Of a DNA stretch of 64,000 bases, positions 12,828-59,651 are shown in pieces. The DNA comes from Deltaproteobacteria bacterium (GTDB lineage Bacteria; UBA10199; JADGCS01). The notes below the pieces were generated by a model, which made no database searches, was not told the origin of the DNA, and was given only the letters and a program-made list of their open reading frames with translations. Each line of letters begins with the position of its first letter. Position 1 is the first letter of the stretch. The stretch lies in contig JADGCS010000007.1 of the NCBI GenBank assembly GCA_015228875.1, positions 1,494 to 65,493 on the forward strand. Direction: 5' to 3'. A program made the position numbers and the translations under genes.

Positions 12828-12900
12828 TGTTTATCTCCTCCACCCCGCATCAGAGGCTGTCTAAATCGACAGCCTCATCACACGAGGTGCCTTGCGATCT

Positions 12901-13677: not shown

Positions 13678-13735
13678 AAGCCACCCTCTTTAAATGCGCG
13701 CTGACGCATTTGTTTCCCTTGCCGCTTCACAACAT

Positions 13736-14182: not shown

Positions 14183-14204
14183 TTAACACACCTTCAAGTT
14201 ACTA

Positions 14205-14277
14205 ACTTGACTCTGACGCGGTTGAGTTCCTTCGCTATGCGAGGCAGGCATCCGCGCCCTGTCAACTTTAAAATTCC
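14205..14277 (+). mobile_element. MITE copy 4 (short) between fliJ and fliI
   Basis: CAAGTTACTAACTTGACTCTGACGCGGTTGAGTTCC…CATCCGCGCCCTGTCAACTTTAAAATTCC. Confidence 0.75.
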
Positions 14278-14289
14278 CGGACATTACAC

Positions 14290-15618: not shown

Positions 15619-15650
15619 ATTCTGTCATCAAATAATTTTACAAGTTACCA

Positions 15651-15675
15651 ACCTGACCTTAATGCCTGTACATCA
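15651..15675 (+). mobile_element. MITE fragment (5' terminus only) between fliI and fliH
   Basis: CAAGTTACCAACCTGACCTTAATGCC matches the element terminus. The rest is missing. Confidence 0.45.
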
Positions 15676-15677
15676 AT

Positions 15678-16367: not shown

Positions 16368-16394
16368 CGTTTTATCTCCATCTGTTGCACCACA

Positions 16395-17447: not shown

Positions 17448-17479
17448 TTTTTCTCCACGCTATTTCTTAACTTGTTTTC

Positions 17480-17535
17480 TCCGCTGTGTATTCACATTCA
17501 CTGCACACACAAGTTACTCAATATGTACCCTCTCA
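17480..17535 (+). repeat. Possible degenerate MITE remnant in the fliG-fliF intergenic region
   Basis: CTTAACTTG…CACACAAGTTACTCAATATG reproduces only the CAAGTTAC/GTAACTTG terminal palindrome of the element. Confidence 0.3.
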
Positions 17536-19436: not shown

Positions 19437-19484
19437 ATATAATTCCTCACCCGCATAACGCGACAAATACTACGCGCGGGGTGC

Positions 19485-19565
19485 ATTGCGATCGGACATG
19501 AATAATTTCATGTCTGGCGCTATGCGCCAATTGCGATCGGATATGAATGATTTCATGTCCGGCGC
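19485..19565. repeat. Two tandem 36-bp palindrome-containing repeats (45-bp period) in the flgC-fliE intergenic region
   Basis: ATTGCGATCGGACATGAATAATTTCATGTCTGGCGC / ATTGCGATCGGATATGAATGATTTCATGTCCGGCGC. Each holds an 8-9-bp inverted repeat GACATGAA-N4-TTCATGTC. The palindrome GGCGCTATGCGCC lies between them. Confidence 0.7.
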
Positions 19566-20607: not shown

Positions 20608-20624
20608 TGCAAAAGAGGTGCCAA
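20608..20624 (-). promoter_or_regulatory. Consensus sigma-54 (-24/-12) promoter for the flgB operon
   Basis: The minus strand reads TTGGCAC-CTCTT-TTGCA, i.e. TGGCAC-N5-TTGC. It lies ~185 nt upstream of the flgB ATG. Confidence 0.7.
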
Positions 20625-28791: not shown

Positions 28792-28864
28792 GATTTACCT
28801 CTTTATTTGGCGCCTTTGAGTGCTGCGAAAATACCCACAAGCAAAGGCGTATGGTTTATGTTCA

Positions 28865-28974
28865 GGAATTTCAAAGTTGACAAACCGCGGGTGCCTGCCT
28901 CGCATAACGAGGCGACTCAACCGCGTCCCCCAAGGGGATTTCCTTCGGGGCATCAAAGTCAAGTCAGTCACTTG
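28865..28974 (-). mobile_element. MITE copy 6 (long variant) between ssb and the sigma-54 regulator gene
   Basis: GGAATTTCAAAGTTGACAAACCGCGGGTGCC…CCCCCAAGGGGATTTCCTTCGGGGCATCAAAGTCAAGTCAGTCACTTG. Confidence 0.8.
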
Positions 28975-29256
28975 TGTTTGTTCAAACAGTCTTTGCTAAA
29001 CACGACGCAGGTCATTGTCAATGGGTTAAATCAAGATGTAAGGACAACACCGTTTTTTCTAAAAAAAACAAGAAACTTTACACATGTCTGTCCGATGCTG
29101 CAGACAGGGGGATGCTTTGTCCAAGATTTTATTGATTCCAGAATTTTGAACACGGTGTGTCCATGATTTTTGGCAATGTGTATAAAATATTGGACACCCC
29201 GATGTTTTATAAATATAACTGTATAACAATTGTGACATTTAATTGTTTGATTTTTT

Positions 29257-29272
29257 GGCACAATGATTGCTT
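29257..29272 (+). promoter_or_regulatory. Consensus sigma-54 promoter for the NtrC-type regulator gene
   Basis: TGGCAC-AATGA-TTGCT on the plus strand, ~26 nt upstream of the ATG at 29298. A GGAGG RBS lies at 29285-29289. Confidence 0.65.
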
Positions 29273-29297: not shown

Positions 29298-30677
29298 ATG
29301 GATAATCACATTTTATTTATAGACGATGACAACACCTTTCTCGCAGGACAAAGGGACCTCTTGTCTGATCGATTTATGGTCTCAATAACCAGCAGTCTGG
29401 ACTCTGCGTTCTTGATTATCGAACAAAACCCTGTTGACCTCGTCTTTCTCGATGTTAACTTTGGATTAATAAAGGAAGGCATTAACTATTTAAGGGTTTT
29501 AAAAGAAAAAGACCCGTCCCTTGTGGTCATCATGCTTTCCGGGTGCAAGGATCCGGACCTTGTGGTGAGGGCCATTAAAAATGGGGCTGATGACTACATC
29601 TGCAAGCCCTGTCCTATCGGTGAGCTCATCGGTGTGATAGAAAAAAATCTCTCAAAAAAATCAGAAAAGGATAAAAGTGCCGCGTTGATCGAATACTGCA
29701 ACGATCAAAAAAACAAGATCAAGTTTTTAACCAATTCGGAAAAGGCAAAAGAGGTCTTAAGAAAGGCTGGCCTGTTAAAAGGGCATAACACCAATATTCT
29801 CATCGAGGGGGAGAGCGGCACGGGAAAAGAAGTTCTTGCCAAATACATTCACTCCCTCGAAAACAATCCCAAAAGACCTTTTATTGCCCTTAACTGCGCG
29901 GCCATTCCCGACAATCTTTTAGAGTCTGAGCTTTTTGGATACGAGCGGGGTGCATTTACGGGGGCCATCAAGAGAAAAATTGGCAAGTTTGAACTTGCTG
30001 ACAAGGGCGATATTTTTCTGGACGAAATCAATTCCCTTAAACCGGATTTTCAGGCAAAGCTCCTGCGTATCCTGCAGGAAAAAGAGTTTTATCGCGTGGG
30101 CGGGACAGTCTCTGTCAAAGTCAACGTGAGGGTGATTGTTGCCTCCAATAAAGACCTTCAGACCGAAGTCCTCGAAGGCCGATTTCGCCAGGACCTCTTT
30201 TACAGACTCAGGGTCATAGCGCTCACGATCCCGCCTTTAAGAGACAGACCAGAAGATGTCTCGCTGCTGTTTAACCATTTTATCAAGACCTACAAAAAAA
30301 ATGAGGGGTCCGTGGTCTTTTCACAAAACGCCCTCAAGGTCATTCAGGGCTATAGCTGGCCCGGCAATGTCAGGGAGTTGGAAAATCTGGTGCAGTCCCT
30401 CCTGATTGTCTCAGGGCATGGGGAGATCAAGGTGGAAAACCTCCCCGTCTGGATGCTCGGAAACAACAAGTTTAAACCCGAAGCCCGCGATCTCACAGAG
30501 CTTACTCACAACGAAATCACACGTGCGCTTAATTATTATATCGAAAAACACGAGAAGCTTATTATCAAAAAAGCCATAGAGGAAAATAAAGGAAACACCA
30601 CAGAGGCCGCTAAAGTTCTCAACATCAGCAGATCGACGCTCTATAACAAACTGAACAAAGAAGGGCTCGACGCCTGA
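29298..30677 (+). CDS. Sigma-54-dependent Fis-family response regulator (NtrC/FleR/PilR-type enhancer-binding protein)
   Basis: 459 aa. REC domain with a D52-like acceptor, AAA+ sigma-54 activator domain (GESGTGKEVLAKYIH, ESELFGYERGAFTGA), and a C-terminal Fis-type HTH. Confidence 0.9.
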   Translation: MDNHILFIDDDNTFLAGQRDLLSDRFMVSITSSLDSAFLIIEQNPVDLVFLDVNFGLIKEGINYLRVLKEKDPSLVVIMLSGCKDPDLVVRAIKNGADDYICKPCPIGELIGVIEKNLSKKSEKDKSAALIEYCNDQKNKIKFLTNSEKAKEVLRKAGLLKGHNTNILIEGESGTGKEVLAKYIHSLENNPKRPFIALNCAAIPDNLLESELFGYERGAFTGAIKRKIGKFELADKGDIFLDEINSLKPDFQAKLLRILQEKEFYRVGGTVSVKVNVRVIVASNKDLQTEVLEGRFRQDLFYRLRVIALTIPPLRDRPEDVSLLFNHFIKTYKKNEGSVVFSQNALKVIQGYSWPGNVRELENLVQSLLIVSGHGEIKVENLPVWMLGNNKFKPEARDLTELTHNEITRALNYYIEKHEKLIIKKAIEENKGNTTEAAKVLNISRSTLYNKLNKEGLDA

Positions 30678-36743: not shown

Positions 36744-37199
36744 TACGGCTCCCAAAGATGATCTGTATTCCTTGTGTCGCGGCATAGCACACCCATTAAA
36801 TTCCTTCCATCTTTTTTGTCCCCCCAGGCGATCCCTCAATTGATCAGAAGCAACCTCTGTGCCAACAATGCGCCACCTTTTCGCTTCACGGCAAAACTTT
36901 TATGCAACCAGCGCATTTTATTTTGCAAACTCCGCTCTGCCCGACCAGCTTCTGATTACTGCTGGCCATCTCCACCGTGATGGTGTCCCAAAAAAATATA
37001 TGCAGAACACAGGCCAACCAAAACCATGTCTTCAGGGAGTAAATGAGAAGGGTTGGGAAGGTGCCGGGCTTGAAACACCCTCCCAACCCAGGGAAGTGAA
37101 AAACAGAGAAGATCAACCTTTAACATCAACAGCAAACCGTGCGCGCTTCTTTCTCACAGGGAGACACAGATCTCATCACCACCCCCACATTCAGCACAA

Positions 37200-37700: not shown

Positions 37701-37716
37701 AGCAACCCTTGTGCCA
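37701..37716 (-). promoter_or_regulatory. Consensus sigma-54 promoter upstream of the pilV-pilW-pilX-fimT minor pilin operon
   Basis: The minus strand reads TGGCAC-AAGGG-TTGCT. It lies ~25-40 nt upstream of the pilV start. Confidence 0.6.
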
Positions 37717-40137: not shown

Positions 40138-42408
40138 TTGTTTTACTCCCACGAACCTGCCATCTTTTTTTTCATGGCACTGGCAATCCCCGCGTATCTG
40201 ACACCCTCTGCGCCCTTAACATCAGGGAATCTCAGTGCTGTCTGGCAAGGGCCCCCCCCCGATACAAGCCGTTCATTCTTTTCGCCAGAAATGCAGTCTT
40301 ACTTTGAGGGGCTCACCACCAGAGGGCTTGTGCGCAGGCCCCCCGCCCTGTTTAATGCAACACAACAGCGGGTGTTCTGTCCGCCCGGCCTCAGAGAATC
40401 AGCACAAATCACAGAAACACGCAGGCCCCCCGCCACACACGAGGACCCCATTGTTCATGCCGATCCTTTCCGTTGGCTCGAAACAGACTCGCCAGAGCGC
40501 GACCGCTGGCTCTCTGCTCAAAACGCTTATTCAAAGCGTTTTTTTAGAGGACTCAAGTGTCACACACGGTGGGAGTCCATCTTTAGAAATCTTTTTAACG
40601 AACCCAATGTCATAAAGTCCGTTGATCTTGGCGATCTCAGCATAGAACTGATCGACAGGGGTCTTAACAAACCAACCGAGCTTGTTGTCAAAAAGGGTGG
40701 CAAGGAAATCAAAACCCTCTTTTCAACCCACAGCCTTGCGCGCAACGGCACTGCCGCAGCCACAAGTTTCGAGATCGATCCCAACCAAAAATACGTGATC
40801 CTGCCCGTGTCCCGCAGGGGTTCCATCGATAACTACGATCTTTACGTTATCAACATCCGTACAGGCAAAACGCTTGAAATAGTCAAAAACGCTAGGGGCA
40901 ACGGCTGGCTCTCCTGGCTGTCGGCGGATACCTTTAAGTACAACAGACTTGTCGGTAGGGACGAGATTACACTTATTCATAAACTGGGGAGCAGCAGGGA
41001 TGGGATAGGGCAGGACAGGTTTTTAGAAACCAACGCCCGATTCTTTAACTCAAAAGATCGGGATGTCGTCTTTCGCAGCACACCGGACAACACATGGGTC
41101 AAAGCAATGAGCGGCAGCAAATGGAAACGCCTTAATGTGGTTGTTCAAAGGGACTTTGGCCAGATTGGCGATGAAAGACTTGTAGAAATCAAACACAATG
41201 GCAAAACAAAACTTGCCAAATTGACACTCAACAATACCACAGAGGGACAAGCCAGGGCTGCTACCGTGCAAGTTGTTCACGAAGCACAAGAAGACGCTGT
41301 GATAAAAAACATCACAAGAAACGAAGATCACATCGTGATACATTACGCTTATGGCAAAAAGCAGTGGCTGGAAGTCCTTAAATCCGATGGCACAAAAGAG
41401 AACGCATTCGACCTGCCTGATTGTTTTTCAATCACCCACATGGATTTTGTGGACAAGACCACATTAACGCTGACACTCACCTCTAATGTCATCAGAAAAA
41501 AAGACTTCAAGTTCGATATTGCAACGGGCCTTTTTGTTGACGCTGATCCTCAAACGGAGATGACAACCGATGAAAAGGGGCAGGTGTTTGTCACAGAGTA
41601 TGTTGAGGTGGTCAGCAAGGACGGTACAAAGGTGCCGGTGAGACTCACTTATAAAAAGGGGCTTGTTAAAAATGGGCAAAACCCCGTGCTGATCGAGGGG
41701 TATGGCGGCTTTAATGTCCCCGGGCATTTTTATCCCGCGTTCAGCACACAATTAAAACACTTTATCGATCATGGTGGCGTCTACGTAGCCCCTGCCTTAA
41801 GGGGAGGAAACGAACTTGGAGAGAGCTGGCACAAACAGGGCATGAAAGAAAAAAAACAAAACGTCTTTAACGATCTCTTTGCCACCGCAGAGTTTCTTAT
41901 TAAAGACCAGCTCACGCAGCCAAAAAAGATCGCCGCAATGGGTTGGTCAAACGGCGGGCTGCTCATGGCGGTTGCCGCCACCCAGCGTCCCGATCTTTTT
42001 GGTCTTATCATTGCCGGTAATGGTGTTCACGACATGCTCAGGCGCGACAATCTTGATCCCGAGTTTAACGACGGCTGGGCTTATGAGTACGGCCATACCC
42101 AAGACCCCAGGCAGTGGCCTTATTTCGAGGCCTATTCACCCGTCCATAACGCACGCCCCAGTCCCCACATGCCAACGGTGCTTGTCCTTGTTGGCAGAAA
42201 CGACTCGCGGGTTGACCCCGCCCACTCCTATAAGTTTGCCGCAGCCCTGCAGAAGGTGAGTCACCCGGATCAAAAAATTCTCTTAAGCAGCATGCCCAAT
42301 GCCGGCCACTGGATGACGTACGAAGATCTGCAGGATCTCATTGGCTGGTGCAGCAATGCGCGTATCTGGTCCACCATTTTTGAAACGCTGGGGATGGAGG
42401 TGGCTTGA
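40138..42408 (+). CDS. Prolyl oligopeptidase (S9A serine peptidase) with an unusual Pro-rich N-terminal extension
   Basis: Beta-propeller plus alpha/beta hydrolase with GWSNGG nucleophile. The PEP N-terminal motif (VHADPFRWLETDSPERDRWLSAQNAYSKRFF) begins ~100 aa into the ORF. The true start is uncertain. Confidence 0.85.
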   Translation: MFYSHEPAIFFFMALAIPAYLTPSAPLTSGNLSAVWQGPPPDTSRSFFSPEMQSYFEGLTTRGLVRRPPALFNATQQRVFCPPGLRESAQITETRRPPATHEDPIVHADPFRWLETDSPERDRWLSAQNAYSKRFFRGLKCHTRWESIFRNLFNEPNVIKSVDLGDLSIELIDRGLNKPTELVVKKGGKEIKTLFSTHSLARNGTAAATSFEIDPNQKYVILPVSRRGSIDNYDLYVINIRTGKTLEIVKNARGNGWLSWLSADTFKYNRLVGRDEITLIHKLGSSRDGIGQDRFLETNARFFNSKDRDVVFRSTPDNTWVKAMSGSKWKRLNVVVQRDFGQIGDERLVEIKHNGKTKLAKLTLNNTTEGQARAATVQVVHEAQEDAVIKNITRNEDHIVIHYAYGKKQWLEVLKSDGTKENAFDLPDCFSITHMDFVDKTTLTLTLTSNVIRKKDFKFDIATGLFVDADPQTEMTTDEKGQVFVTEYVEVVSKDGTKVPVRLTYKKGLVKNGQNPVLIEGYGGFNVPGHFYPAFSTQLKHFIDHGGVYVAPALRGGNELGESWHKQGMKEKKQNVFNDLFATAEFLIKDQLTQPKKIAAMGWSNGGLLMAVAATQRPDLFGLIIAGNGVHDMLRRDNLDPEFNDGWAYEYGHTQDPRQWPYFEAYSPVHNARPSPHMPTVLVLVGRNDSRVDPAHSYKFAAALQKVSHPDQKILLSSMPNAGHWMTYEDLQDLIGWCSNARIWSTIFETLGMEVA

Positions 42409-42491
42409 CAAGTGACTCACTTGACCTTGACGCGATTGAGTGCTTCTATCATGCAAAGAATGAGCCCGCGCTCAATCAGCTTTGAAATTCT
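42409..42491 (+). mobile_element. MITE copy 7 (short), starting immediately after the prolyl oligopeptidase stop
   Basis: CAAGTGACTCACTTGACCTTGACGCGATTGAGTGC…GAGCCCGCGCTCAATCAGCTTTGAAATTC. Confidence 0.75.
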
Positions 42492-42502
42492 TGGACTTCG
42501 AG

Positions 42503-42950: not shown

Positions 42951-43694
42951 TTAAAACCACTTATCTGCCACTTTGTTCTGCGCCTTGATCTCCGTCTTAA
43001 GCGCCCGGTCCGCGTGATTAAACACCTCTAGATAAACACTGTTATAGATACCCTTGTCTTTTTCGTTTAAGATATCTGGTGCTGATATCTCAAAACCAAG
43101 ACGATCGTGCAGCTTGTAAAGGTCCTTATAAAGATCGACATTGGTGATGGGCTTTCCCGGTCTTGTCCCCGCAAAGTCTGTCTGTTCAAGCCTGGGTCTC
43201 TTGGCAAAGGCGTCCGCGATGGTCTTTACATGGTTATAAAGTGTCAACCGCGATGATTTAATTTCTGTGGGTAGTGTCTCAAGGGCCCAGATTGTGGCAA
43301 GAAACTCAAGACGTATGGGTGTGGTGTCTTTAACCTCATGTGTGTCTACCTTTAATGTGTCCTGTTTAAAACCTTGGAAGGTTTTTTCTACGCGTTTCGG
43401 CATCAATTTTTGCATGGTGTCCGCCCGCGTAGTGTCTGGCGCATAGCGCCAAACATGAAACTCTTCATGTTTGATCGCAATGCACTCCGCTTTATGCGGG
43501 TTAAGGTTCAGGCTGCCGATTCTGGTATCAGGGATGATGAGCCTGCCAGCCGATCCCAGTTTTAGTCTCGCGTCAAAGTTTACGGCCACAAAGATAATCT
43601 GATGATCCCTGCCTGTGCTTTGAGGGTTGTTCTTCATAAAGTGCGGGATTAACTGATTCCCGCCACACTTTCCAACCACTTTTTTTATTATCAC
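42951..43694 (-). CDS. Hypothetical protein
   Basis: 247-aa ORF immediately upstream of rlpA (1-nt gap). No recognisable motifs. Start uncertain. Confidence 0.4.
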   Translation of the reverse strand: MIIKKVVGKCGGNQLIPHFMKNNPQSTGRDHQIIFVAVNFDARLKLGSAGRLIIPDTRIGSLNLNPHKAECIAIKHEEFHVWRYAPDTTRADTMQKLMPKRVEKTFQGFKQDTLKVDTHEVKDTTPIRLEFLATIWALETLPTEIKSSRLTLYNHVKTIADAFAKRPRLEQTDFAGTRPGKPITNVDLYKDLYKLHDRLGFEISAPDILNEKDKGIYNSVYLEVFNHADRALKTEIKAQNKVADKWF

Positions 43695-43868: not shown

Positions 43869-43884
43869 TGGCACGGTCTTTGCT
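43869..43884 (+). promoter_or_regulatory. Consensus sigma-54 promoter upstream of the Cys-rich protein / J-domain paralog operon
   Basis: TGGCAC-GGTCT-TTGCT on the plus strand, ~115 nt upstream of the ATG at 43998. Confidence 0.6.
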
Positions 43885-43997
43885 TCGTTTAGGGGCTGAG
43901 GTCCTCCCTCTGGGGGGATGTTTGCATAGTCTTAAGGTCTTTAGGTTGTGGGGTTGTCGGCATTTGATTTGTGGCTTATTAAGGCAGGGGGTGTTTT

Positions 43998-44588
43998 ATG
44001 AAGTCATGTTTACAAGTTACTCACTTGACTTTGACGCGATTGAATTCCTTCATTTTGCGAGGAGTGCGCCCGCGCTCTGTCGACTTTAAAATTCCTATCC
44101 ATAAACATGCCGCCATCGTTTTTTTGTATTTTATCGTTTTGTTCCTCCCTTTTTTAAGCCTTGCAAAAGAAAAGAGGGATGGGCCAGACTGCAAGGGTAA
44201 GTGCTCTGTCATCAATAAACAATGCGATGCGCATTGTGCGTTAAGTCCCAACGCGGGCGATTGTCAAAAGGGGTGCAATGCCTCCTTTAAGGATGCCAAG
44301 GGTTACTGCCTGAGTAGTTGTGCCACACAGCCCACGTTTTTAGAGCCTTGTCCCGGCTCGGGGGACGACCCCTCCGTCGAAAAAACCGAGGACGACTGTC
44401 TGTATTCCTGTGAGGATCACTACAGCAACTGTGTGCTGTCCTGCAGGGGCCATTTTGAAGGCGGTTCTCCCGGGATCAAAAACTGCTACAACAGCTGTAA
44501 CGATACCTTTGCCGAGGAAGAGGGGTTCTGCAAGTTTCAGTGCAGAACCGATTTTGATTTTATGGCGGTGTGTGCGGCAGAGGAATAG
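43998..44588 (+). CDS. Small Cys-rich, probably secreted, protein whose 5' end is formed by a MITE copy
   Basis: 196 aa. A hydrophobic segment (AAIVFLYFIVLFLPFLSLA) is followed by ~26 Cys in CxxxC/CxxC arrays. Codons 5-33 are translated from the MITE copy at 44013-44095. A GGGGGTG RBS precedes the ATG. Confidence 0.5.
   Translation: MKSCLQVTHLTLTRLNSFILRGVRPRSVDFKIPIHKHAAIVFLYFIVLFLPFLSLAKEKRDGPDCKGKCSVINKQCDAHCALSPNAGDCQKGCNASFKDAKGYCLSSCATQPTFLEPCPGSGDDPSVEKTEDDCLYSCEDHYSNCVLSCRGHFEGGSPGIKNCYNSCNDTFAEEEGFCKFQCRTDFDFMAVCAAEE
44013..44095 (+). mobile_element. MITE copy 8 (short) inside the 5' coding region of the Cys-rich protein gene
   Basis: CAAGTTACTCACTTGACTTTGACGCGATTGAATTCC…GTGCGCCCGCGCTCTGTCGACTTTAAAATTCC, translated as QVTHLTLTRLNSFILRGVRPRSVDFKIP. 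Confidence 0.8.
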
Positions 44589-44851
44589 CAAATATTTACA
44601 TCACGTCTTACCCATTTTTTTTGCCCCATTGAGTGGACACTTTGCGGTGTAAACCTTGCGTCCGCTTCCATGTTTTTTTTCACATATTTCAAAACATTGG
44701 GAATTCAGAAAAAAAAAAATCAAGCAACTTGCAAAAGCCCCTCAACGATAGAGCGACACGGCGACATTCGGGTTGGATATTCTTTTGAGCCATCCCACTT
44801 TTGTTTGCCAATAAATTTACAATCAAGGGTGTGTTGAAAAATGCCCCAAAC

Positions 44852-44932
44852 GTCATTGCGAGCGAAGCGCGGCAATCCAGAAGTGCTCGAAATTACTGGA
44901 TTGCCGCGCTCACTACATGCGCTCGCAATGAC
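44852..44932. repeat. Composite 13+14-bp perfect inverted repeat (long interrupted hairpin) 47 bp upstream of the paralog A start
   Basis: GTCATTGCGAGCG-aa-GCGCGGCAATCCAG-(15-nt loop)-CTGGATTGCCGCGC-tcactacat-GCGCTCGCAATGAC. Confidence 0.7.
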
Positions 44933-44978
44933 GAAATTACCATTTTTCAACAGTCCAATCAATCGCATTGAGTAGAAT

Positions 44979-47684
44979 ATGTCGTTTCATGCCGTCAACC
45001 GCCTGCACCAGGCCCTTTCTGCATCACCCTTTGCCGCTACTGTTGCGCTTAACACGGCAGCCAGCGTTCATGCTTTGTATCACGCCCACACATTGCGGCA
45101 GCTCGCGACAGTGCTCGCAGATCAGGACAAGGCCCTCGGCACACAGATGGGTACGATTGTCAACCATACCAGATTTAAAACAAGCTCGGATGAATTTAAA
45201 ACAGCATGGGACGATTATGTGGGCCTGATTGAGCAAGGCCCTGCCCCCGAAACACCCACAACCGCACAAGTTACTAACTTGACTTTGACGCGATTGAGTT
45301 TCCTCGCCATGCGAGACATACCCCCGCGCTCTGTCGACTTTGAAATTCCCAGACATCAAGAAGATCACACCATGCTGCGTGGCAACACCCTTCTCGAAGC
45401 CATCCAGCAAAAACTTGCGTTTCCAGACACCCGATACAAATGGATGACTCAGGTTCTTGCAGGCACAACCCCTGGGAGAGCAGTAAGCGACCAGGGGCTG
45501 GCCCTCATGATGGAGGCTCAAAAGATTCAGGTCTTTCTTGGTCGTGTCCCCAAAGACGATCCTCACTTTCGTGTGCGTTTAAGCCGCGATGGGTCTCTGG
45601 TGGTTGTCACACTGGAGTGCCCCGATACTTTAAAGGTCCTCTCCGAACCCATCGTGCAACACCTGTTAAGGGCGGGATTACTGACCTACCTCTGTCGGCC
45701 ACAACCCGTCACACGCCCCCATGCCACAACAGTAAGCAGGTATGACATAGAAAAAATCCACATCATAGACAAAGAAATCGAGAGCTACACAAAATTAATC
45801 AGGGTGCTTAAAAGCGAGGGCTATGTAAAACTCTCCGAAGCAATTTTGAAAACCATACAGACCGAAAAAGGGATTACCCCGCAGACACTCATTGATGCGG
45901 CCTATGAGATCTCAAAGATCAACGAGTTGCTGGGACTTCATCTCTTGTTCACCGCGATGAAGGCCTCTCTCGAAGCAACCGAAGGATCACCACATGTTGC
46001 AGTAAAAGCCTTTATTGAGACATTACAGACATCAAACTCATCATCCTATGCAGGCAAGCTCGCCCCGGTACCTATACAAGTCCTTCACCAAACCATCATG
46101 CGGACATCCATTAGTAACCCCGACAGAAGACAATGGTTTTTGAAAGGTCTTGCGTCCCTTGGTATAATAAACCGGGAAAAAATATTGGACCAACCTCCCG
46201 TCAGCATGTCCAAAAGACGGGCCGTGAATATCAGGATATCAAGGGTCCCGGGGACATTCTTTAAGCTACATCCCAGAGGGATGCGCGGGGCATCTCTGTT
46301 AACTATTGACATTGGCATCCCTCATTCTGTCGATTACTTAAGCGAGGAGCAGCTTAAGATCCTCGTCTGCGTTACGCTTGCGACCATGGCGTTTAATAAA
46401 GACGATCCAGACGCACTGCTGGCCAATGAGCTGGATGAAAAAAGTCTTGCATTGCCAGCAACAATCCTTAAACCTGCCGCCAATATTGAGCTGTCTGACG
46501 AGCACCTTATCCAAACCGGTTTGCATCACCTTGCACAAGAACAAAGGGCAGACGTGCTGTCGACCATCAGAATGTTTCAGGAGAGTTCCTGTTTAACGGC
46601 CCCATTCTCCGGCATCCCCAACGCAGGTCATATTTTTAGGCCGCTCACAAGGTACTATGTGGTTGCTTTACGGGTCTACATCACTGTTGATGAGAGGATT
46701 TTAGAACCTCTCGTGTATGCCACGTCTCGTGATCACAGGATCACACTGCGCATCCAGTGTGCCAGCAAGGATCTTGCAAAGATTGATTCGAGGGCACTGA
46801 TATCTGCTGTCTTGAAATCTCTGGACGGCACAAGTGGCCACATGCCCTTCAGACTGCTTGAGCCCCTCATCAATCCTGACGCGGTCAATGCCTTGGTGGC
46901 GCTTGAGATCTTGCAGGCCTATCTCGCAAGCCCCGTCACGCTCCCCGAACGTATTAAAATTAATGGTAGTGAAGTAACCAAAGACGTCAGAAAAAATCTT
47001 GGCCTTGCCATGATGGCGTTACACGATTTTAGCAGATACACCGATAGTCCGCTTCTCAAGGACTTGAGCGCCGGCATGCTTGTGGTCCAGCTCTATCATG
47101 TTCAGACATGGGTCACGAAGGACGAGACAACCACCATCACCGCCCTGCCAACAGACCGCGGTATTTTTATACAGATTATGGGCAGCGAGCAGAGTATAAG
47201 TCCAAGACAGTGGCTTTATCTGCTCACAGCGATGGCCGATAACCCCGGAAAGGCTGTGAGTATACGCATCGAAGGCACAGATATCCATCTGGTTTTTGGA
47301 GAACATCATGCAGGCCATGATCTTTATGCCAACATCATCAGTGACGTGAGGTTATTACGATTTGAAGTCTTTGATCCCAACGCCAAAAGGCCGCGGGTCT
47401 CTCCAAAATTTCCTGGTAACAAGCCCGCCCACGCGAATCCAAATTTTATGAAACATTCAGAGGCCGAACGACGGGCCTTTATCAGGGCCTTGATCTGGTT
47501 TGCCTATGCCCCGATACCCGATGAGTTTAAACCAACGGCAACCGACACAATGGGTGAAATTAAAAAGAAAAGAAGGGCCATGAGTTTTGCCTATCATCCA
47601 GACAACGCGCCATCAAAAGACAACATCGAATTATTTACAACAGCCAACTCATTCTGGGACACTGTAGAAGACATGAATGAATAA
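44979..47684 (+). CDS. Large hypothetical protein, paralog A, with a C-terminal J-domain-like region (HPD motif) and an in-frame MITE insertion
   Basis: 901 aa, colinear with paralog B, with ~60 % identity in the C-terminal third. The C-terminus reads EIKKKRRAMSFAYHPDNAP…ELFTTANSFWDTVED, matching J-domain helix II-HPD-helix III. Residues ~97-125 are encoded by the MITE at 45267-45349. Confidence 0.7.
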   Translation: MSFHAVNRLHQALSASPFAATVALNTAASVHALYHAHTLRQLATVLADQDKALGTQMGTIVNHTRFKTSSDEFKTAWDDYVGLIEQGPAPETPTTAQVTNLTLTRLSFLAMRDIPPRSVDFEIPRHQEDHTMLRGNTLLEAIQQKLAFPDTRYKWMTQVLAGTTPGRAVSDQGLALMMEAQKIQVFLGRVPKDDPHFRVRLSRDGSLVVVTLECPDTLKVLSEPIVQHLLRAGLLTYLCRPQPVTRPHATTVSRYDIEKIHIIDKEIESYTKLIRVLKSEGYVKLSEAILKTIQTEKGITPQTLIDAAYEISKINELLGLHLLFTAMKASLEATEGSPHVAVKAFIETLQTSNSSSYAGKLAPVPIQVLHQTIMRTSISNPDRRQWFLKGLASLGIINREKILDQPPVSMSKRRAVNIRISRVPGTFFKLHPRGMRGASLLTIDIGIPHSVDYLSEEQLKILVCVTLATMAFNKDDPDALLANELDEKSLALPATILKPAANIELSDEHLIQTGLHHLAQEQRADVLSTIRMFQESSCLTAPFSGIPNAGHIFRPLTRYYVVALRVYITVDERILEPLVYATSRDHRITLRIQCASKDLAKIDSRALISAVLKSLDGTSGHMPFRLLEPLINPDAVNALVALEILQAYLASPVTLPERIKINGSEVTKDVRKNLGLAMMALHDFSRYTDSPLLKDLSAGMLVVQLYHVQTWVTKDETTTITALPTDRGIFIQIMGSEQSISPRQWLYLLTAMADNPGKAVSIRIEGTDIHLVFGEHHAGHDLYANIISDVRLLRFEVFDPNAKRPRVSPKFPGNKPAHANPNFMKHSEAERRAFIRALIWFAYAPIPDEFKPTATDTMGEIKKKRRAMSFAYHPDNAPSKDNIELFTTANSFWDTVEDMNE
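45267..45349 (+). mobile_element. MITE copy 9 (short) inserted in-frame within paralog A
   Basis: CAAGTTACTAACTTGACTTTGACGCGATTGAGTTTCC…CCCCCGCGCTCTGTCGACTTTGAAATTCC, read as QVTNLTLTRLSFLAMRDIPPRSVDFEIP. Paralog B lacks these ~29 residues at the aligned position. Confidence 0.85.
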
Positions 47685-47712
47685 AAAATACTTGGAATAA
47701 AAATAAAAAGTA

Positions 47713-47748
47713 CCTGGCACCAAAAAAAATTTGGCACCAAAAAAAATT
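47713..47748 (+). repeat. Tandem 18-bp direct repeat (C)CTGGCACCAAAAAAAAT x2 upstream of the paralog B gene
   Basis: Direct duplication is visible. Each unit carries a TGGCAC (-24-like) hexamer but no TTGC -12 element. Confidence 0.6.
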
Positions 47749-47961
47749 CATCGCGACTGTCAGTCAAAAAAACTTCCCAAAAAAAGAAAACAAATAATCA
47801 AGCAATATCCACAACATACAGGGTATAAAAAAAACAGGCAACACGCAGGCCCCTGGCGACGATATTCCTGGTATGTTTAGGAGCAAACATAAGGTCGGAT
47901 GTTTTTTGTATCCCTCTGACTTTTGTATTAAAAAATCACAAACAAAGGTAGCAATTTAAAA

Positions 47962-50709
47962 ATGAGTTTTCCAGCCGTCAACAACCTGCATCAAGCCCTT
48001 GCTCAGTCGCCATTTGCGGGTGCAGTTGCGCTTAACACAAGGCTGCCGACTGACCTTTTGTACGACTTTGGCACACTGCGACAGCTCGCAGTAATACTTT
48101 CCGGTCAGGATAAAGTTTTGGCTGCCGAGGTCAAGGCGGTCACTGCAATACCTCATCGAAAAAATACTCCGAGATTTGATCGGCAATGGAGTGACTGCGT
48201 GAGTCTTATCGCAGGCAGGCAGTCCGCAAGAAGACAACAGCCAGAAACAGGAGAGCAAACAGCCCTGACAGGCAACACCCTGATTGAAGCCGTCCAACGG
48301 CAACTCGATGATAGAACAACCAGACAAGAATGGATCTCCCGCGCACTCGCCAGGGTCGGGGCAAAACAACGCACCAAAGAGGTGGTACTTGCACACATCG
48401 AACCCGTTAACAATCTCAGACTGCAGCTTGGTCCTGTCAGCAACAGAGACTATCGTGTGCAATTAAATGAACAGGGTGAGCTTGTGGTCGTCACCATGGA
48501 ATGCCCCAGCTCGTTAAGAGTCTTCTCGATGCCCATTGTAGAGCACCTGCTGGGCATGGGACTCAGGGCGTATTTTTTCACACCCCCCGCTCCCGCAAGC
48601 CCCCTTTTTACCAAGGTCTCCGCCGCAGATATCGAAGGCATTCATTCCGTCGATCAGGAGGTTGAACTCAACGCAGAATTAATCAGGGCCTTACAAACAG
48701 CAGGGTTTAATAAACTCTCCCAAGATGCAGTAAAAAAATTGAGGGAAAGAAAAGGCCTTGACCCGCAAACACTTATAGACATTGCATTTGAAGTCTCGGA
48801 GACCCACAAACACACAGGGCTTCAACTTTTAAGCACCGCCTTAAAGGCCAAAATACAAGATAATCATAAATCACTTTATGCCTCATGGAAGTTATTCTGC
48901 AACCAACTGATTTCGATGGATAGCAAAGAGAAGGGCAAGCCAGTCCCGGTCTCGATGGAGGATCTACAAGAGACCATTCTACTGACATCCATCGAAAACC
49001 CAGATAGAAGAAAATGGTTCGAGGACGGCCTTAAGTCCCTTGGTGTCCCCAATCCCAAGGCCATACTGGATGAAAAGCCGATTGATCTTGACAAGAGAAA
49101 GGCCGTTTATATCAAGATAAGCAGAACCCCGGGCAACGCATTTCATCTAGACCTTGATGCACCCGTTGGCGCATCCTCCATGCTGCTTAATATCGGTGTC
49201 CCTCGTTCGGTGACACACTTAAGCAAAGATAACATAAAGCTCCTGGTCGCTCTTGCCATTGTTAAAGAGGCGTTTGGTGATTACAACTCGGATAATCTGA
49301 TCGCCGAAACTGTGACGCTACAAAGCCTCTCCTCACCAAAAGACCTGCTCAAACCCCTCGCGTCGATGACACTATCAGCAGATAGTTACCGCAGAATCAG
49401 TGCGGACAGCCTTTCAAGGGAGCAACAGAAAGAATTGCAGGCGGTGATCCATATGTTTAAAGCCCTCACGAGCGTTGCCGCCCAGCAACACGCAAAGGAA
49501 TCTGAGGGCAGTGTTTTTCGAACAGAAAAAAGATCTCACGAAAAAATAATCGCCGGCGTAGCAGACAAACTTGAGCCCTTGTTTGCCATCCCCCATGCAG
49601 AGCATTTTTTTAAGGCCCTGAGCAAATGCCACATTGCCGATTTTAATATCGCCATCACGGTTGATGACACGATTGAGGGCCCGGTTGTTTCTGCACGGGC
49701 CATGGCTAAAAAGATCACATTTTTTATTAAGTGTGCCCACAAGGACATCCCCCAAATTAATGCACAGACACTGATAGCCCTGGTCCTCAGGTTTTTTGAC
49801 CGCGGTCTTGCCTCATCAAACAAACTGTTTGATCCACCCACCGAGCCCGATTCGATCATGGCCCTCGCAGCGCTCGAGGTGCTTCAAGAATTTCTTGTTT
49901 CTCCCAACACACCGCCAGAGAGGCTTGCCGTCACCGGCAGCGACGAAACCAAGCCCGTCAGGCAGGCGCTTGGTCACGCCATGATGGCGCTGCACGATTT
50001 TAGTAAGAGAACCGACAACCCGCTCCTCGGACACTTAAGCACCAACATGCTTTCTGCCCAGCGTTATCATGTTCAGGTGTTGACCACCACAGATGACACC
50101 ACAACCATCACAGCCCTGCCAACAGACCGCGGTGTTTTTATACAGATTAAGGGCAAGCAACAAAACATTAACGCAAAACAGTGGCTCTATCTGTTAACGG
50201 TGCTGGCAGATAATCCCGGAAAAGCAGTCTGCATCTGCATCAGGGGCAATGATATCAGCATTGTTTTTGGAACCCACAAGGCTGGCCGTGACCTCTACGC
50301 CAGTATAATCAGCGACGTGCGGCTGTTACGGTTTGGGGTCTTTGATCCCGCTGCCAAGAGGCCACAGGTCTCTCCAAAATTCCCCGGCGACAAGGCGGCC
50401 GATGCACATCCAAACTTTATGCAGAGTCCCTTGGCTCTGCGGCGGGCCTATATCAAGGCATTGATCTGGTTTGCCTATGCCCAAATACCCGATGAGCTTA
50501 AACCAACGGCCACTGATACCCCGAATGAAATCAAACAGAAAAAAAAGGCCATGAGTTTTGCCTATCATCCGGACAGACTCGGTCAACAATATAGAGGGGC
50601 AGAACTGGCAGAAAAAGCAGAGTTGTTCAAAACAGCCAACACGCATTGGGATACTATTGAGGCCATGAATAACGTGAACACACAATTTAACACACCAACT
50701 GATGCATGA
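47962..50709 (+). CDS. Large hypothetical protein, paralog B, with a C-terminal J-domain-like region (HPD motif)
   Basis: 915 aa. Shares the N-terminus MSF(H/P)AVN(R/N)LHQAL and a long conserved C-terminal block (QWLYLLT…ADNPGKAV…IISDVRLLRF…RALIWFAYA…KAMSFAYHPD) with paralog A. Confidence 0.7.
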   Translation: MSFPAVNNLHQALAQSPFAGAVALNTRLPTDLLYDFGTLRQLAVILSGQDKVLAAEVKAVTAIPHRKNTPRFDRQWSDCVSLIAGRQSARRQQPETGEQTALTGNTLIEAVQRQLDDRTTRQEWISRALARVGAKQRTKEVVLAHIEPVNNLRLQLGPVSNRDYRVQLNEQGELVVVTMECPSSLRVFSMPIVEHLLGMGLRAYFFTPPAPASPLFTKVSAADIEGIHSVDQEVELNAELIRALQTAGFNKLSQDAVKKLRERKGLDPQTLIDIAFEVSETHKHTGLQLLSTALKAKIQDNHKSLYASWKLFCNQLISMDSKEKGKPVPVSMEDLQETILLTSIENPDRRKWFEDGLKSLGVPNPKAILDEKPIDLDKRKAVYIKISRTPGNAFHLDLDAPVGASSMLLNIGVPRSVTHLSKDNIKLLVALAIVKEAFGDYNSDNLIAETVTLQSLSSPKDLLKPLASMTLSADSYRRISADSLSREQQKELQAVIHMFKALTSVAAQQHAKESEGSVFRTEKRSHEKIIAGVADKLEPLFAIPHAEHFFKALSKCHIADFNIAITVDDTIEGPVVSARAMAKKITFFIKCAHKDIPQINAQTLIALVLRFFDRGLASSNKLFDPPTEPDSIMALAALEVLQEFLVSPNTPPERLAVTGSDETKPVRQALGHAMMALHDFSKRTDNPLLGHLSTNMLSAQRYHVQVLTTTDDTTTITALPTDRGVFIQIKGKQQNINAKQWLYLLTVLADNPGKAVCICIRGNDISIVFGTHKAGRDLYASIISDVRLLRFGVFDPAAKRPQVSPKFPGDKAADAHPNFMQSPLALRRAYIKALIWFAYAQIPDELKPTATDTPNEIKQKKKAMSFAYHPDRLGQQYRGAELAEKAELFKTANTHWDTIEAMNNVNTQFNTPTDA

Positions 50710-50745
50710 GTTGTTAATGCATTATTAATTTAAACATGCCAATGA

Positions 50746-52734
50746 TTGGCAGACAAGGAGAGAAAAATGTTACCCACAACCCCAAGAGTATTAACCGTAC
50801 AAACAATGCAGACCCCATCCGCCCTGATACAGGCCGTCAAGAGCACCTTTACAGACCTGCCAGACGCACCCGTCATGACACCGCACCAAACAGCAGAGTT
50901 CGAAAGGCTGGGGCACGCGCTTACAAGTCAAGGAGCAACAAAACACGGCATGGCATTGGTAAGAGCCTGCAGCAATACTGCTGCGGCTTCACCTGTAGAA
51001 TATACCAAACAGATAGTACGCGCTGTCGAAGCGCTCAGCAACGTTGAGACGCCCGCCTTTACCCTCGGCGGTGTGGCACTTGCAAAGGCTGGCGAGGTTT
51101 ATGGATTAAGACCTGAGCGGCAGGCGGATCCCACAAGTACCGAACTCACACAGCAATTGGATACGGGGTTAATAACTGAAACCCTTGATGTTGATATTGG
51201 CCATGATACTGGCAGCGAAAAGTTGGAAAAACCAGAGCCTGTTTTTTATCCCCACAATACAACACCCAAGGAAGAATCCGCCGTTGCCCTTGACCAGGCC
51301 ACCCTCGCAAGAGCAAGGACCAACATGGCAGAGGCAATGACTGCGCTTGCCAACGAATCCCCCATGCTCCCAGCCATGCTGCCCCTGCACCTTTCTGCCC
51401 TTATTATGGGAGAGATCAATGCCAATGTGGATCTGAGAACCGAGGCGGTCAGCTTTATTGCAGAGAGCGTCTACAATGCCACAATTTACGGTGCGGCTGT
51501 CATTGCCAATGTTGTCGATACAGGCCGCTTTCACCTGCCGCTCACCACAATCCCCGTCACCTGGAGCTCGCGCGTAGCCGACGAGGCACCACAGGTCGCA
51601 GATGCTATTGTCAATGGCATCGAAAATGTTCAAAATATCTTAAGAATAATAAGATCCTTGCGCGTAGCATACCCCGAGGCAATGGCATCACTGGCAACTG
51701 CTAATCCGGGTGCCTTTGGACCAGAGGCGCTCAGAGAACTTGGTAACATATATCAACTGCACGAATTGGCCGCCACACACCCGGCGCAAGACCTGGTGGA
51801 TTTTATCCTTGCAGGCGACATCCCCGTCCGATTTGTGAGCTTGGGGGAAGATCATGAGCTGATTAAGGTCAGGGCGCCGAGGTCTGATGGTCAACCCGTG
51901 AACTCAACACCAAGTGATTGGGCCGATCCCGTAAGCAATTTTTTGCAACGTGCGGATTGGACAGATTATGTGCGGACTTTCGATATCAAGGAATTCATTG
52001 CCGACTCCATGCCGACAGCATCCCAAGCAGAACAAAAAGTCCTTATCCATGTCCGTGAACTTGACTATCAAAGTAATCAAAGCAGGGCCTTCGAAATACT
52101 GTTGTCGAAAATCCTGCTTCCAAGACTCAAAGAGGAGGTCACAAGCCTCAACACATGGGGGATCACCCAGTTTGACATAGTCCCTGCAATGATAGAAGCA
52201 ATGATCGGGCGCGGTGAATACCAACAGGCACTGGTGCTCTATAATTTTACGCATAGCAGACTCCAGGAGATCTCTAACGCCGTGAACAGGATCGAATACC
52301 ATCAGGAGAGACTGTTCTTGATCGGAGAACGAAAGGCGCGCAATAAATTTCTTGCACTGGCCCGCCGGATGATTCGGGATGGCAATCTTGAGGCAGCACA
52401 ACGCCTCTCTCGTTCGATGGCCAGACAGGGCAGGGGCAGAGAGCCCGTGGTCAGGATAAAACAGGGGGCCCTCTCAAAACAACTGAGTTCAGTTGTTGCC
52501 TTCATTGCCGAGTCCATGAGGTCCTTGGGGGCGCTTCCCGCAGGCGAAGCCACACTCAGTCTCGCGAGTTCTGTGCCGTCCACAGCCTCTCTGATGGATT
52601 TCCGGAAATTCGACCCTCGGCTCAGCGTCGCTGATTACCTTGCGTTGTTTGGGATCCCTGCCCCGGGAAGCAAAGATGTACCCGCCCTTGGGGTTAGCGG
52701 GGCAACGGGATTTCGTGCAGGTAAAAGGCAATAG
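50746..52734 (+). CDS. Hypothetical protein (662 aa), last gene of the putative sigma-54 operon
   Basis: Long ORF with an AAGGAG RBS, 36 nt after the paralog B stop. No recognisable domain. Confidence 0.55.
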   Translation: MADKERKMLPTTPRVLTVQTMQTPSALIQAVKSTFTDLPDAPVMTPHQTAEFERLGHALTSQGATKHGMALVRACSNTAAASPVEYTKQIVRAVEALSNVETPAFTLGGVALAKAGEVYGLRPERQADPTSTELTQQLDTGLITETLDVDIGHDTGSEKLEKPEPVFYPHNTTPKEESAVALDQATLARARTNMAEAMTALANESPMLPAMLPLHLSALIMGEINANVDLRTEAVSFIAESVYNATIYGAAVIANVVDTGRFHLPLTTIPVTWSSRVADEAPQVADAIVNGIENVQNILRIIRSLRVAYPEAMASLATANPGAFGPEALRELGNIYQLHELAATHPAQDLVDFILAGDIPVRFVSLGEDHELIKVRAPRSDGQPVNSTPSDWADPVSNFLQRADWTDYVRTFDIKEFIADSMPTASQAEQKVLIHVRELDYQSNQSRAFEILLSKILLPRLKEEVTSLNTWGITQFDIVPAMIEAMIGRGEYQQALVLYNFTHSRLQEISNAVNRIEYHQERLFLIGERKARNKFLALARRMIRDGNLEAAQRLSRSMARQGRGREPVVRIKQGALSKQLSSVVAFIAESMRSLGALPAGEATLSLASSVPSTASLMDFRKFDPRLSVADYLALFGIPAPGSKDVPALGVSGATGFRAGKRQ

Positions 52735-54576: not shown

Positions 54577-54867
54577 ATGAAAATACCGGATTTTGAATGG
54601 GATGACCAAAAGAATAATGAAAATGTTACAAAACACGGCATTTCATTCTACGAAGCACAGTACGCCTTTAAAGATCCAAAGCGTGTTATCGCTGAAGACC
54701 TTGGGCATAGCGGCAAAGAAAAAAGATATTACTGTTTTGGTTCAGTCTCCAACGGGATTCTGACGGTAAGATTTACACACAGAAGCAATAAAATCCGAAT
54801 CTTTGGTGCCGGATACTGGCGCAAAGGAAAGGCTTTGTATGAAAAGGAAAATAAATTACACAAATGA
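54577..54867 (+). CDS. brnT: BrnT-family (DUF497) type II toxin
   Basis: 96 aa. DUF497 motifs (FEWDDQKNNENVTKHGISFYEAQYAFKDP…IRIFGAGYWRKGKALYE). Confidence 0.8.
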   Translation: MKIPDFEWDDQKNNENVTKHGISFYEAQYAFKDPKRVIAEDLGHSGKEKRYYCFGSVSNGILTVRFTHRSNKIRIFGAGYWRKGKALYEKENKLHK

Positions 54868-55075
54868 GCCAATCGGTGATCTCAATATTATCAAGGACTT
54901 TTTACCTTCTCCTGCCGATCTATGCTTTAATGACGACAACGTGAAGATCACCATTTCACTCAGCAAATCAAGTATTGATTTTTTTAAAAAACATGCAAAA
55001 AAGCACAAAACGCAATATCAAAAAATGATCAGAAAACTGCTTGATCTTTACGCTGTTCGTCACCAAAGAACGTAA
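54839..55075 (+). CDS. brnA: BrnA-family antitoxin (ribbon-helix-helix)
   Basis: ~78 aa starting MKRKINYT. It overlaps the brnT 3' end by 29 nt, as is typical for brnTA. Start chosen inside the longer track ORF. Confidence 0.75.
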   Translation: MKRKINYTNEPIGDLNIIKDFLPSPADLCFNDDNVKITISLSKSSIDFFKKHAKKHKTQYQKMIRKLLDLYAVRHQRT

Positions 55076-58579: not shown

Positions 58580-58626
58580 TGATTTGTTGGTACAAAAATT
58601 CTCCCATCAACACAATTTAATGTCTA

Positions 58627-58710
58627 GGAATTTCAAAGTTGACAGAGCGCGGGTGCGTTCCTCGCATAACGGAGGAACTTAAATCGCGTCAAAGTCAAGT
58701 TAGTAACTTG
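58627..58710 (-). mobile_element. MITE copy 10 (short, inverted orientation) between the SNF2 helicase and the TPR gene
   Basis: GGAATTTCAAAGTTGACAGAGCGCGGGTGCGTTCC…GCGTCAAAGTCAAGTTAGTAACTTG. Confidence 0.8.
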
Positions 58711-59651
58711 TCCAGCCTGCGCAGTCTGCCATAAAGCGGTTTGTGTCCTGCGGCCAGTGCCTCGTAGATGGTTTTAAGCCCTGCAACACGGTTGCACTTT
58801 CTGGCGCACATTTCAATTGTGTTAAGAAATTTAAAATTATCGAGGTTGGTTTGAATATTAAGGGCAAACAACTCAAAGGCCAGATCAAAGGCCTTGAAGC
58901 GATAACAGGTCCATCCGGCATCCACACCAAATTTGGACCTCAGCGGTTCGAGGTTTTTTTTGATGACCTCGCGAGCCCCCTCGACATCTGCTGTCTTGAG
59001 AAGTTTTTCGATGAGAGGGGGGATCAGATGGGGTGGGGTCTCGTCGCCAAGCTCTGCAAGGTCCTCCATTTCTTCGATCAAATCTTTCGAATCAAGCATC
59101 CGCGCCTTCATCTCGACCACCTTTTTTAGGGCAAACTCGTGATCCGGATATGCCTCCAGGAACATCCCGTATTGATCCAGCGCAAGCTGCCATTTTTTTT
59201 GTCTCTCATACAGCCAGCCCAGATCCATCCTTGCCGGGGGGTACTGCCTGACCAGCAATTCAAGGATGGGCCCAGCCTCTGCAAAAGCTCCCATTTGCGT
59301 GAGTGCCTTGGCCCGCCAGTATTCTGAGACCCTGTGAGGGTTCACCCTTGACGCCTCGGTAAAATAGGTGGCGGCCTTTTTGTAATCCTTGAGACCATAA
59401 TAGACATGACCTGCAAGCAGGAGCACCCTTCCCGAATCGGGGAAAAGTTTGGTTAACTGCAGGGCCAGGGTGGCCCCACTTTTATAATCCTTTTTTTTGA
59501 CAAGAAACTCCAGTTCCATGCCCCTTGTTTCGACAGAAAGGGGGTCAATCTGTTTGAGGTGGGAGAGGGCCGTGGCGGCCTCTTCAAGGTTTTTGTGTTT
59601 GAGGGCTTGAGATAAATTGTAGCGAAGGGTATGGACAGGGCCTGAAACCAC
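58695..59651 (-). CDS. TPR-repeat protein (start uncertain)
   Basis: TPR-like repeats throughout. The annotated 5' ~70 codons overlap the opposite-strand ATPase gene, so a GTG at 59651 is proposed as start. Confidence 0.55.
   Translation of the reverse strand: MVSGPVHTLRYNLSQALKHKNLEEAATALSHLKQIDPLSVETRGMELEFLVKKKDYKSGATLALQLTKLFPDSGRVLLLAGHVYYGLKDYKKAATYFTEASRVNPHRVSEYWRAKALTQMGAFAEAGPILELLVRQYPPARMDLGWLYERQKKWQLALDQYGMFLEAYPDHEFALKKVVEMKARMLDSKDLIEEMEDLAELGDETPPHLIPPLIEKLLKTADVEGAREVIKKNLEPLRSKFGVDAGWTCYRFKAFDLAFELFALNIQTNLDNFKFLNTIEMCARKCNRVAGLKTIYEALAAGHKPLYGRLRRLDKLLT

Follow-up and report, generated by a model that had tools for sequence, protein, structure and literature searches.

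Large bacterial proteins with C-terminal J domains form a rare family encoded beside one conserved partner

A C-terminal J domain is found in DjlA of Escherichia coli and in HopI1 of Pseudomonas syringae, a type III effector, as well as in the eukaryotic proteins auxilin, GAK, and plant JAC1, which direct Hsc70 to a specific assembly. DjlA, HscB, and DjlB/DjlC of E. coli are examples of class C (type III) J-domain proteins (JDPs), which are 54 to >1000 aa long, resemble DnaJ in nothing but the J domain, carry this domain at any position, and target Hsp70 with it to one specific place or client (PMC8215388). Furthermore, Rki of phage RB43, a small, phage-borne orphan J-domain protein, acts on the host DnaK (PMC3486835). 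In this study, we analyzed a stretch of 64,000 nt (hereafter the window) from the metagenome-assembled genome (MAG) of a "Deltaproteobacteria bacterium" (GenBank assembly GCA_015228875.1, contig JADGCS010000007.1, positions 1,494 to 65,493), which encodes two large paralogous proteins with a J domain at the end, designated A and B, followed by a third protein, D. All three are annotated there as hypothetical proteins (locus tags in Table 1). An initial annotation of this DNA had combined them with a small Cys-rich gene into a sigma-54-driven operon for a candidate effector or chaperone-hijacking module. Our analysis revealed that the core of the locus is instead a two-family module of J-tail genes and D, and not a four-gene sigma-54 operon.

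The two large proteins, already recognized as paralogs in the initial annotation, aligned from end to end with 45% identity (730 bits). Conservation peaked in the N-terminal 50 residues (62%) and in the last ~200 residues (62–78%), the tail being the most conserved part of both proteins, with 68–78% identity compared to 45% overall. A and B are basic (pI 8.3–8.9) and D is acidic (pI 5.7), while no hydrophobic segment, signal peptide, or transmembrane (TM) segment was detected in any of the three; judged by their sequences, A and B presumably act in the cytoplasm. When B, D, or a 22-sequence family alignment was used in word-indexed homolog searches, nothing beyond the query itself was retrieved. 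An exhaustive hidden Markov model (HMM) search against 1.84 billion cluster representatives revealed 23 proteins at E <= 0.001, of which the weakest (P0024) was set aside; the remaining 22, A and B included, are referred to here as the family. Its members are all singletons from metagenomes or MAGs. No relatives were found at the motifs scanned in 185,579 GTDB representative genomes and none in IMG/VR viral contigs, and a scan of metagenomes contributed one further locus (L012). The distribution of the paralogs, proposed as a check in the initial annotation, is that of a rare and undescribed family known from metagenomes and MAGs only.

The J-domain signature at the C-termini, as initially noticed, was borne out by profile searches, family conservation, and a structure model. 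Both tails contain ...AMSFAYHPD..., followed by a helix ending in FWDTVEDM (A) or HWDTIEAM (B), and the domain of B differs from that of A by a 7-residue insert after the HPD and a C-terminal extension of 15 residues. A phmmer search of the A tail against all PDB sequences led to six matches, all six of them J domains, with Ydj1 (5vso) as the best one at E 8.4e-4 (aligned over TATD..EIKK..YHPD..F..A). Using a profile of 21 family tails, we obtained 56 PDB matches at E<1, 53 of which were J domains, the best being that of CbpA (8.2e-6). The Pfam profile PF00226 was matched individually by 14 of the 21 family tails (best E 1.3e-7), and its matches to A and B are sub-threshold, yet specific and in register. 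In addition, one family member is named "J domain-containing protein" by NCBI, and three paralogs of a related locus (L007) carry precomputed DnaJ matches, unmarked. The family consensus, YIxALRWFA...P..WKP.A.D....VKKKYRAM..AWHPD.......LL..S..HW..V, maps to DnaJ helix I, the helix I–II loop, helix II (R22, Y25, K26, L28, Y32), the HPD, and helix III. These helix II residues of DnaJ contact DnaK or belong to the core, and ATPase stimulation is lost in all systems tested when H or D of the HPD is mutated (PMC8215388). Across the family, H and D are invariant in 27 of 27 tails, which argues for selection on Hsp70 contact, and the basic and aromatic positions of helix II are conserved as well; the middle residue is P in 16 tails, S in seven, and T, D, F, or A in one each. 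The tails end 30–48 residues beyond the aromatic residue preceding the HPD. A and B both display a canonical HPD between predicted helices and an antiparallel hairpin of helices II and III with a basic helix II, and the tail of an AlphaFold2 (AF2) model of B superposes on J domains. Based on profile, family conservation, and model, we conclude that A and B carry genuine J domains in their tails, minimal ones with three helices, and that these can very probably act on Hsp70.

For the remaining part of the proteins, structure prediction depended on the depth of the alignment: AF2 with only the two paralogs resulted in an unusable model (pLDDT 35), while the 22-sequence alignment yielded a model of B with a pLDDT of 83.5. 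According to this model and to profile–profile comparison, the first ~820 residues comprise three to four repeats of an alpha/beta unit of ~100 residues, composed of helices, a three-stranded meander, and a helix with the motif "LSxxxLxxLVARAL". Repeat R1 (100–210) matched R2 (326–440) with 99.1% probability (E 4.5e-19), and R2 matched R3 (520–618) with E 3e-5; a fourth unit in front of the J domain has the same secondary-structure order and no significant sequence similarity. In agreement with the initial annotation, the N-terminal ~820 aa revealed no recognizable catalytic domain, nor any Pfam family or significant structural match. Zincin peptidases were considered for the repeat modules and rejected, as HExxH is absent from 22 of 22 members examined and the fold scores are weak.

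Eleven related loci were recovered and compared by all-against-all BLAST. A D homolog adjoins the J-tail gene or genes in all ten loci with DNA past the J-tail gene, and likewise in the window, with a single D homolog (~650–790 aa) per locus accompanying one to eight J-tail genes. The J-tail/D gene pairing is conserved, and D, initially listed as "662-aa unknown", is the one strictly conserved partner. The 662-aa form results from an alternative TTG start, whereas NCBI calls the form of 655 aa. D revealed neither Pfam nor PDB similarity, and its conserved motifs include LPxHLxAIISGEIGAP, NPxAFG, QAEALLDF, ESxRSLGALP, and, at the C-terminus, GIPxPGxPxVPALGT. For lack of such similarity, and since hhalign found no relation to either J-tail subtype, we rejected the possibilities that D is a J-less paralog or a divergent form of Hsp70. 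Gene order varies: the window shows J-J-D, four loci (L002, L004, L008, and L012) show J-D-J', and at L007 (549–20988; GCA_043818055.1, JBDRGF010000029.1) D is followed by eight tandem J-tail genes of 705–834 aa, whose tails carry HPD (three genes), HSD (four), or HFD (one). The first and the last of these belong to a divergent subtype 2 and have the canonical HPD. This subtype (~830 aa) is often located 3' of D, ends in HPD or HTD, and is homologous to subtype 1 across the C-terminal ~450 residues (hhalign 99.3%). Flanking genes are ordinary chromosomal genes that vary from locus to locus.

Considering these results, we judge it on balance probable that A and B act in the cytoplasm as class-C J-domain co-chaperones and bring the DnaK of the cell itself to the partner D. 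The repeat region, presumably the client- or partner-binding part, would bind D or a D-based complex, and the J domain would dock on DnaK-ATP of the cell and trigger ATP hydrolysis. DnaK would thereby be loaded onto a specific client to assemble, remodel, or disassemble it, following a logic like that of auxilin, HscB, or DjlA and unlike that of the general DnaJ. As far as sequences can suggest, DnaK would be the chaperone partner, and D, alone or as a complex, is most plausibly the client. More tentatively, and with a small chance of being right, the module may represent an undescribed, self-contained Hsp70-recruiting system, in which D is served by expandable and diversifying J-domain adaptors of a new repeat fold; it might then be a conflict or defence system or a specialized assembly machine with DnaK as its motor.

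Several points weigh against a recruitment of DnaK to D. The PF00226 scores of A (18.4–18.9 bits, E 0.0016–0.0023) and B (14.9 bits, E 0.03) are both under the gathering threshold of 27.8 bits, so that the Pfam check proposed in the initial annotation yielded specific but sub-threshold matches. Canonical helix IV is missing, A ending 26 residues past the HPD, directly after helix III, and 11 of the 27 family tails have another residue in place of the HPD proline, so that part of the family may be J-like and inactive. Moreover, an Hsp70 gene is adjacent to the module in none of the loci, the repeat modules have only weak, non-significant zincin-like fold matches, and D, instead of being the client, could equally be a regulator or an enzyme of novel fold. 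The first three of these points would also fit J-like domains that have degenerated, lost their action on Hsp70, and taken on a structural or dimerization role, as Pam16/Tim16 has relative to Pam18, in proteins whose function is unrelated to chaperones. Canonical and variant copies co-occurring at L007 and L008 likewise recall such J/J-like pairs. We nevertheless regard this explanation as unlikely, since the invariant H and D in all 27 tails, the canonical HPD and basic helix II of A and B, and a tail that is more conserved than any other part of the two proteins speak for retained Hsp70 contact.

Concerning transcription, the site proposed as a perfect sigma-54 promoter upstream of the Cys-rich gene proved to be an exact match. 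Exact matches to TGGCAC-N5-TTGCW occur five times in the 64-kb window compared to 0.11 expected from shuffles, and all five are intergenic and oriented with the next gene, which makes this site credible as a promoter, the use of sigma-54 by the organism being clear. Together, the five sites sketch a small RpoN regulon consisting of the head of the flagellar cluster, an NtrC-type activator, two pilin-like genes, and the Cys-rich protein. The activator gene, possibly autoregulated via its own sigma-54 site, lies at a distance of 14 kb, and none adjoins the Cys-rich ORF. The four genes are co-oriented as initially described, but of the supposedly short gaps only the last one is short: 390 bp separate the Cys-rich ORF from A, 277 bp A from B, and 57 bp the stop of B from the ATG of D (36 bp from the alternative TTG). 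Simple scans of the gaps revealed no convincing terminator or sigma-70 promoter on the + strand, which is no proof of a single transcript. Because of the gaps of 390 bp and 277 bp, a clear link to the promoter exists for the Cys-rich gene only; read-through into the J-tail/D module may occur. In the 11 related loci, no + strand sigma-54 site is present 5' of the J-tail module; in L001 (937, -), L002 (6607, -), and L005 (1099, -), a near-consensus site with one mismatch faces the divergent upstream gene and not the module. A sigma-54 promoter was therefore rejected as a conserved feature of the module, and with both this site and the Cys-rich gene absent from all related loci, the four-gene operon is not supported as a unit. 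The gap between A and B contains a direct repeat, TGGCACC-A8-TT-TGGCACC-A8, in which the -24-like TGGCAC appears twice; it lacks the -12 TTGC and was rejected as a sigma-54 promoter. Divergent from the sigma-54 promoter region, there is an ORF of 247 aa without a Pfam match, for which NCBIfam indicated only a weak resemblance to RNase HI (E 0.004). An inverted repeat connects this area with a distant position in the window (Table 1).

The Cys-rich ORF encodes 19 Cys, and not 26 as initially counted, 18 of them downstream of a hydrophobic signal or anchor segment at ~38–56 (Kyte–Doolittle maximum 2.59 at residue 38). They form two 9-Cys modules with the spacing C-x3-C-x6-C-x3-C-x8/13-C-x3-C-x10-C-x3-C-x9-C and four CX3C pairs each. 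As this spacing is kept in both halves, the ORF probably encodes a real, exported disulfide-rich protein. Pfam, NCBIfam, PADLOC, and PHROG gave no match, and all-against-all BLAST detected no homolog in the related loci, i.e., the gene neighbors the conserved module and does not belong to it. Its N-terminus is 61% identical over 31 aa (BLASTP) to an insert in paralog A, both being translated in the same frame from copies of a dispersed, hairpin-rich repeat of ~92–97 nt (core ACAAGTTACTAACTTGACTTTGACGCGG...CCGCGCTCTGTCAACTTTGAAATTCC). The position of the insert in A adjoins loop 88–101 of the B model, the only long low-confidence loop in its N-terminal half. At least nine copies of the repeat are present in the window on both strands, most of them directly 3' of genes or between them, some between flagellar genes, and three contain an extra GC hairpin of 27 nt (GATGCCCCGAAGGAAATCCCCTTGGGG). 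A search with Rfam revealed nothing in the window, this repeat included. Copies do lie in the locus, as the initial annotation stated in terms of recent activity of miniature inverted-repeat transposable elements; the repeat is, however, genome-wide and gives this locus no special mark. A second, different palindromic repeat (CATTGCGAGCGAAGCGCGGCAATCC ... GGATTGCCGCGCTC ... GCGCTCGCAATG) was identified in the 390-bp gap, where it overlaps a spurious minus-strand ORF.

Overall, the window represents an ordinary chromosomal region of a motile bacterium (Table 1). Neither injectisome-specific genes nor a type IV (T4SS) or type VI secretion system (T6SS), phage, or plasmid signature was seen in it, and injectisome, T4SS, or T6SS genes were also not found in the related loci. 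PHROGs and BFVD contained no relatives apart from a generic J-domain match of one L007 paralog, and a phage origin of the family was rejected, given that viral contigs were negative as well. PADLOC gave a single hit across all components, at 14 bits, in which B partially matched a model for type IIG restriction enzymes. Genes for a BrnT/BrnA-type toxin-antitoxin pair and an SNF2-family helicase are located just 3' of the permease gene that follows the module.

Table 1. Features of the window and of the related loci (positions refer to the window; + and - denote strands).
Feature	Position	Strand	Remarks
Flagellar export, hook, and C-ring cluster, full	660-19068	-	
Inverted repeat	19476-19529 with 43437-43490		
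Sigma-54 site	20608-20623	-	upstream of three small ORFs heading the flagellar cluster
Sigma-54 site	29256-29271	+	precedes NtrC-type sigma-54 activator
NtrC-type activator	29298-30677		
Sigma-54 sites	36849-36864, 37701-37716	-	each precedes a pilin-like gene
ORF, 247 aa	42951-43694	-	
Sigma-54 (-24/-12) promoter-like site	43869-43884	+	TGGCACGGTCTTTGCT; exact TGGCAC-N5-TTGCW; ~114 bp 5' of the Cys-rich ORF ATG
Cys-rich ORF, 196 aa	43998-44588	+	ORF call
Dispersed repeat copy	44009-44105	+	encodes Cys-rich ORF residues ~4-36
Spurious ORF	44720-44968	-	
Palindromic repeat	44854-44930		
J-tail paralog A, 901 aa	44979-47684	+	MBF0104176.1 (NCBI), HQM16_02505
Dispersed repeat copy	45263-45359	+	in-frame insert in A, 32 extra residues (97-128), missing from B
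J domain of A	47448-47684	+	helices I-III; HPD = residues 873-875, nt 47595-47603
Direct repeat	47715-47750		TGGCAC at 47715 and 47732
J-tail paralog B, 915 aa	47962-50709	+	HQM16_02510; 3-4 repeats of ~100-aa alpha/beta module, then J domain
J domain of B	50422-50709	+	HPD = residues 869-871, nt 50566-50574
Partner D, 655 aa	50767-52734	+	HQM16_02515; AGGAG ribosome-binding site before ATG; alternative TTG start at 50746 (662 aa)
BrnT/BrnA-type pair	54577-55075		
SNF2-family helicase, 905 aa	55862-58579	-	
Dispersed repeat, all copies	3953-4070, 8315-8418, 11205-11301, 14191-14287, 28855-28975, 42405-42501, 44009-44105, 45263-45359, 58617-58711	both	
Other genes			DnaE, HflX, methylmalonyl-CoA mutase (MCM), type IV pilin-like genes, Crp, HupE
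Other genes			prolyl oligopeptidase, RlpA-like protein, xanthine/uracil permease
Loci with D homolog beside J-tail			L001-L005, L007, L008, L009, L011, L012

The neighborhood also bears on the question whether the module functions in conflict or defence, as an anti-phage or toxin-like system in which diversifying J-tail paralogs serve as sensors or adaptors coupling an invader-derived signal to DnaK or to D as effector. Such a function would suit the variable tandem arrays of one to eight divergent paralogs with a single invariant partner, the island-like change of chromosomal neighborhood from genome to genome, the sporadic occurrence with absence from the GTDB representatives at the motifs scanned, the toxin-antitoxin pair and helicase just downstream, and the weak fold likeness of the repeat module to zincin-like CapP, IrrE, and SprT. 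The partial PADLOC match is not meaningful, however, no nuclease, NTPase, TIR, protease, or other effector motif was found (HExxH being absent in the 22 members examined), and no mobile-element genes lie beside the module, so that we consider a defence function rather doubtful.

That A and B are secreted or translocated effectors whose J domain hijacks the Hsp70 of a eukaryotic host or prey, similar to HopI1, appears very improbable to us: a C-terminal J domain on a large, otherwise novel protein, tandem duplication with copy-number variation, a patchy and rare distribution (~20 cluster representatives among the 1.84 billion), and the presence of genes for a flagellar type III export apparatus in the window would agree with it, but A and B have no signal peptide or TM segment, no injectisome, T4SS, or T6SS genes were seen in the window and the related loci, the flagella and pilins sit in an ordinary chromosomal context, the N-terminus is strongly conserved across the family, which we take to be atypical of type III secretion signals, the relatives stem solely from environmental metagenomes and MAGs, and the strictly co-conserved, cytoplasmic-looking D fits an intracellular module better. 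The effector or chaperone-hijacking role initially suggested is thus not upheld, mobile-element context and viral relatives being absent, too. In the literature on bacterial effectors with a C-terminal J domain, nothing specific was found.

The unit of interest is therefore the pair of J-tail and D and not a sigma-54 "effector operon". Bacterial class-C J-domain proteins reveal specialized uses of Hsp70, and few have been characterized. The family described here offers a clean genetic pairing of one to eight J proteins with one novel partner, a repeat architecture that is confidently modelled yet unmatched, and natural variation of the HPD proline beside invariant His and Asp. Occurring rarely and only in uncultured bacteria, the family is probably of limited general importance, unless it turns out to function in conflict or assembly; interest would rise substantially if J-tail/D were shown to be a dedicated system driven by DnaK and having a defined role.

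Coming back to A and B as putative class-C co-chaperones of DnaK, the comparison with known systems shows both likeness and difference. Like other class C JDPs, they carry only the J domain in an otherwise unrelated protein, in the case of DjlA at the C-terminus as well. Their N-terminal ~820 aa, however, resemble none of the partner domains described for JDPs, nor any Pfam family or PDB fold, and they differ by the absent helix IV, the tandem multiplication, and the constant pairing with D. Furthermore, DjlA, DjlB, and DjlC are membrane-anchored, while A and B are without an anchor, and hscBA and hscC-djlBC have an adjacent dedicated Hsp70, which the J-tail loci do not. Auxilin, GAK, and JAC1 show no sequence or fold relation to A and B outside the J domain, and the A/B family is bacterial. 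HopI1, likewise bacterial, resembles A and B in that a J domain at the C-terminus is joined to an otherwise novel protein; it is far shorter, contains a repeat region rich in Pro and Gln, is translocated, and comes from a pathogen that possesses an injectisome, and none of these features was seen for A and B. With Rki, they share the likeness of an orphan J-domain protein, whereas their family has, apart from the generic L007 match, no relatives among viral sequences. What is new here are class-C JDPs that combine a novel repeat body with a strictly conserved partner and an expansion in copy number.

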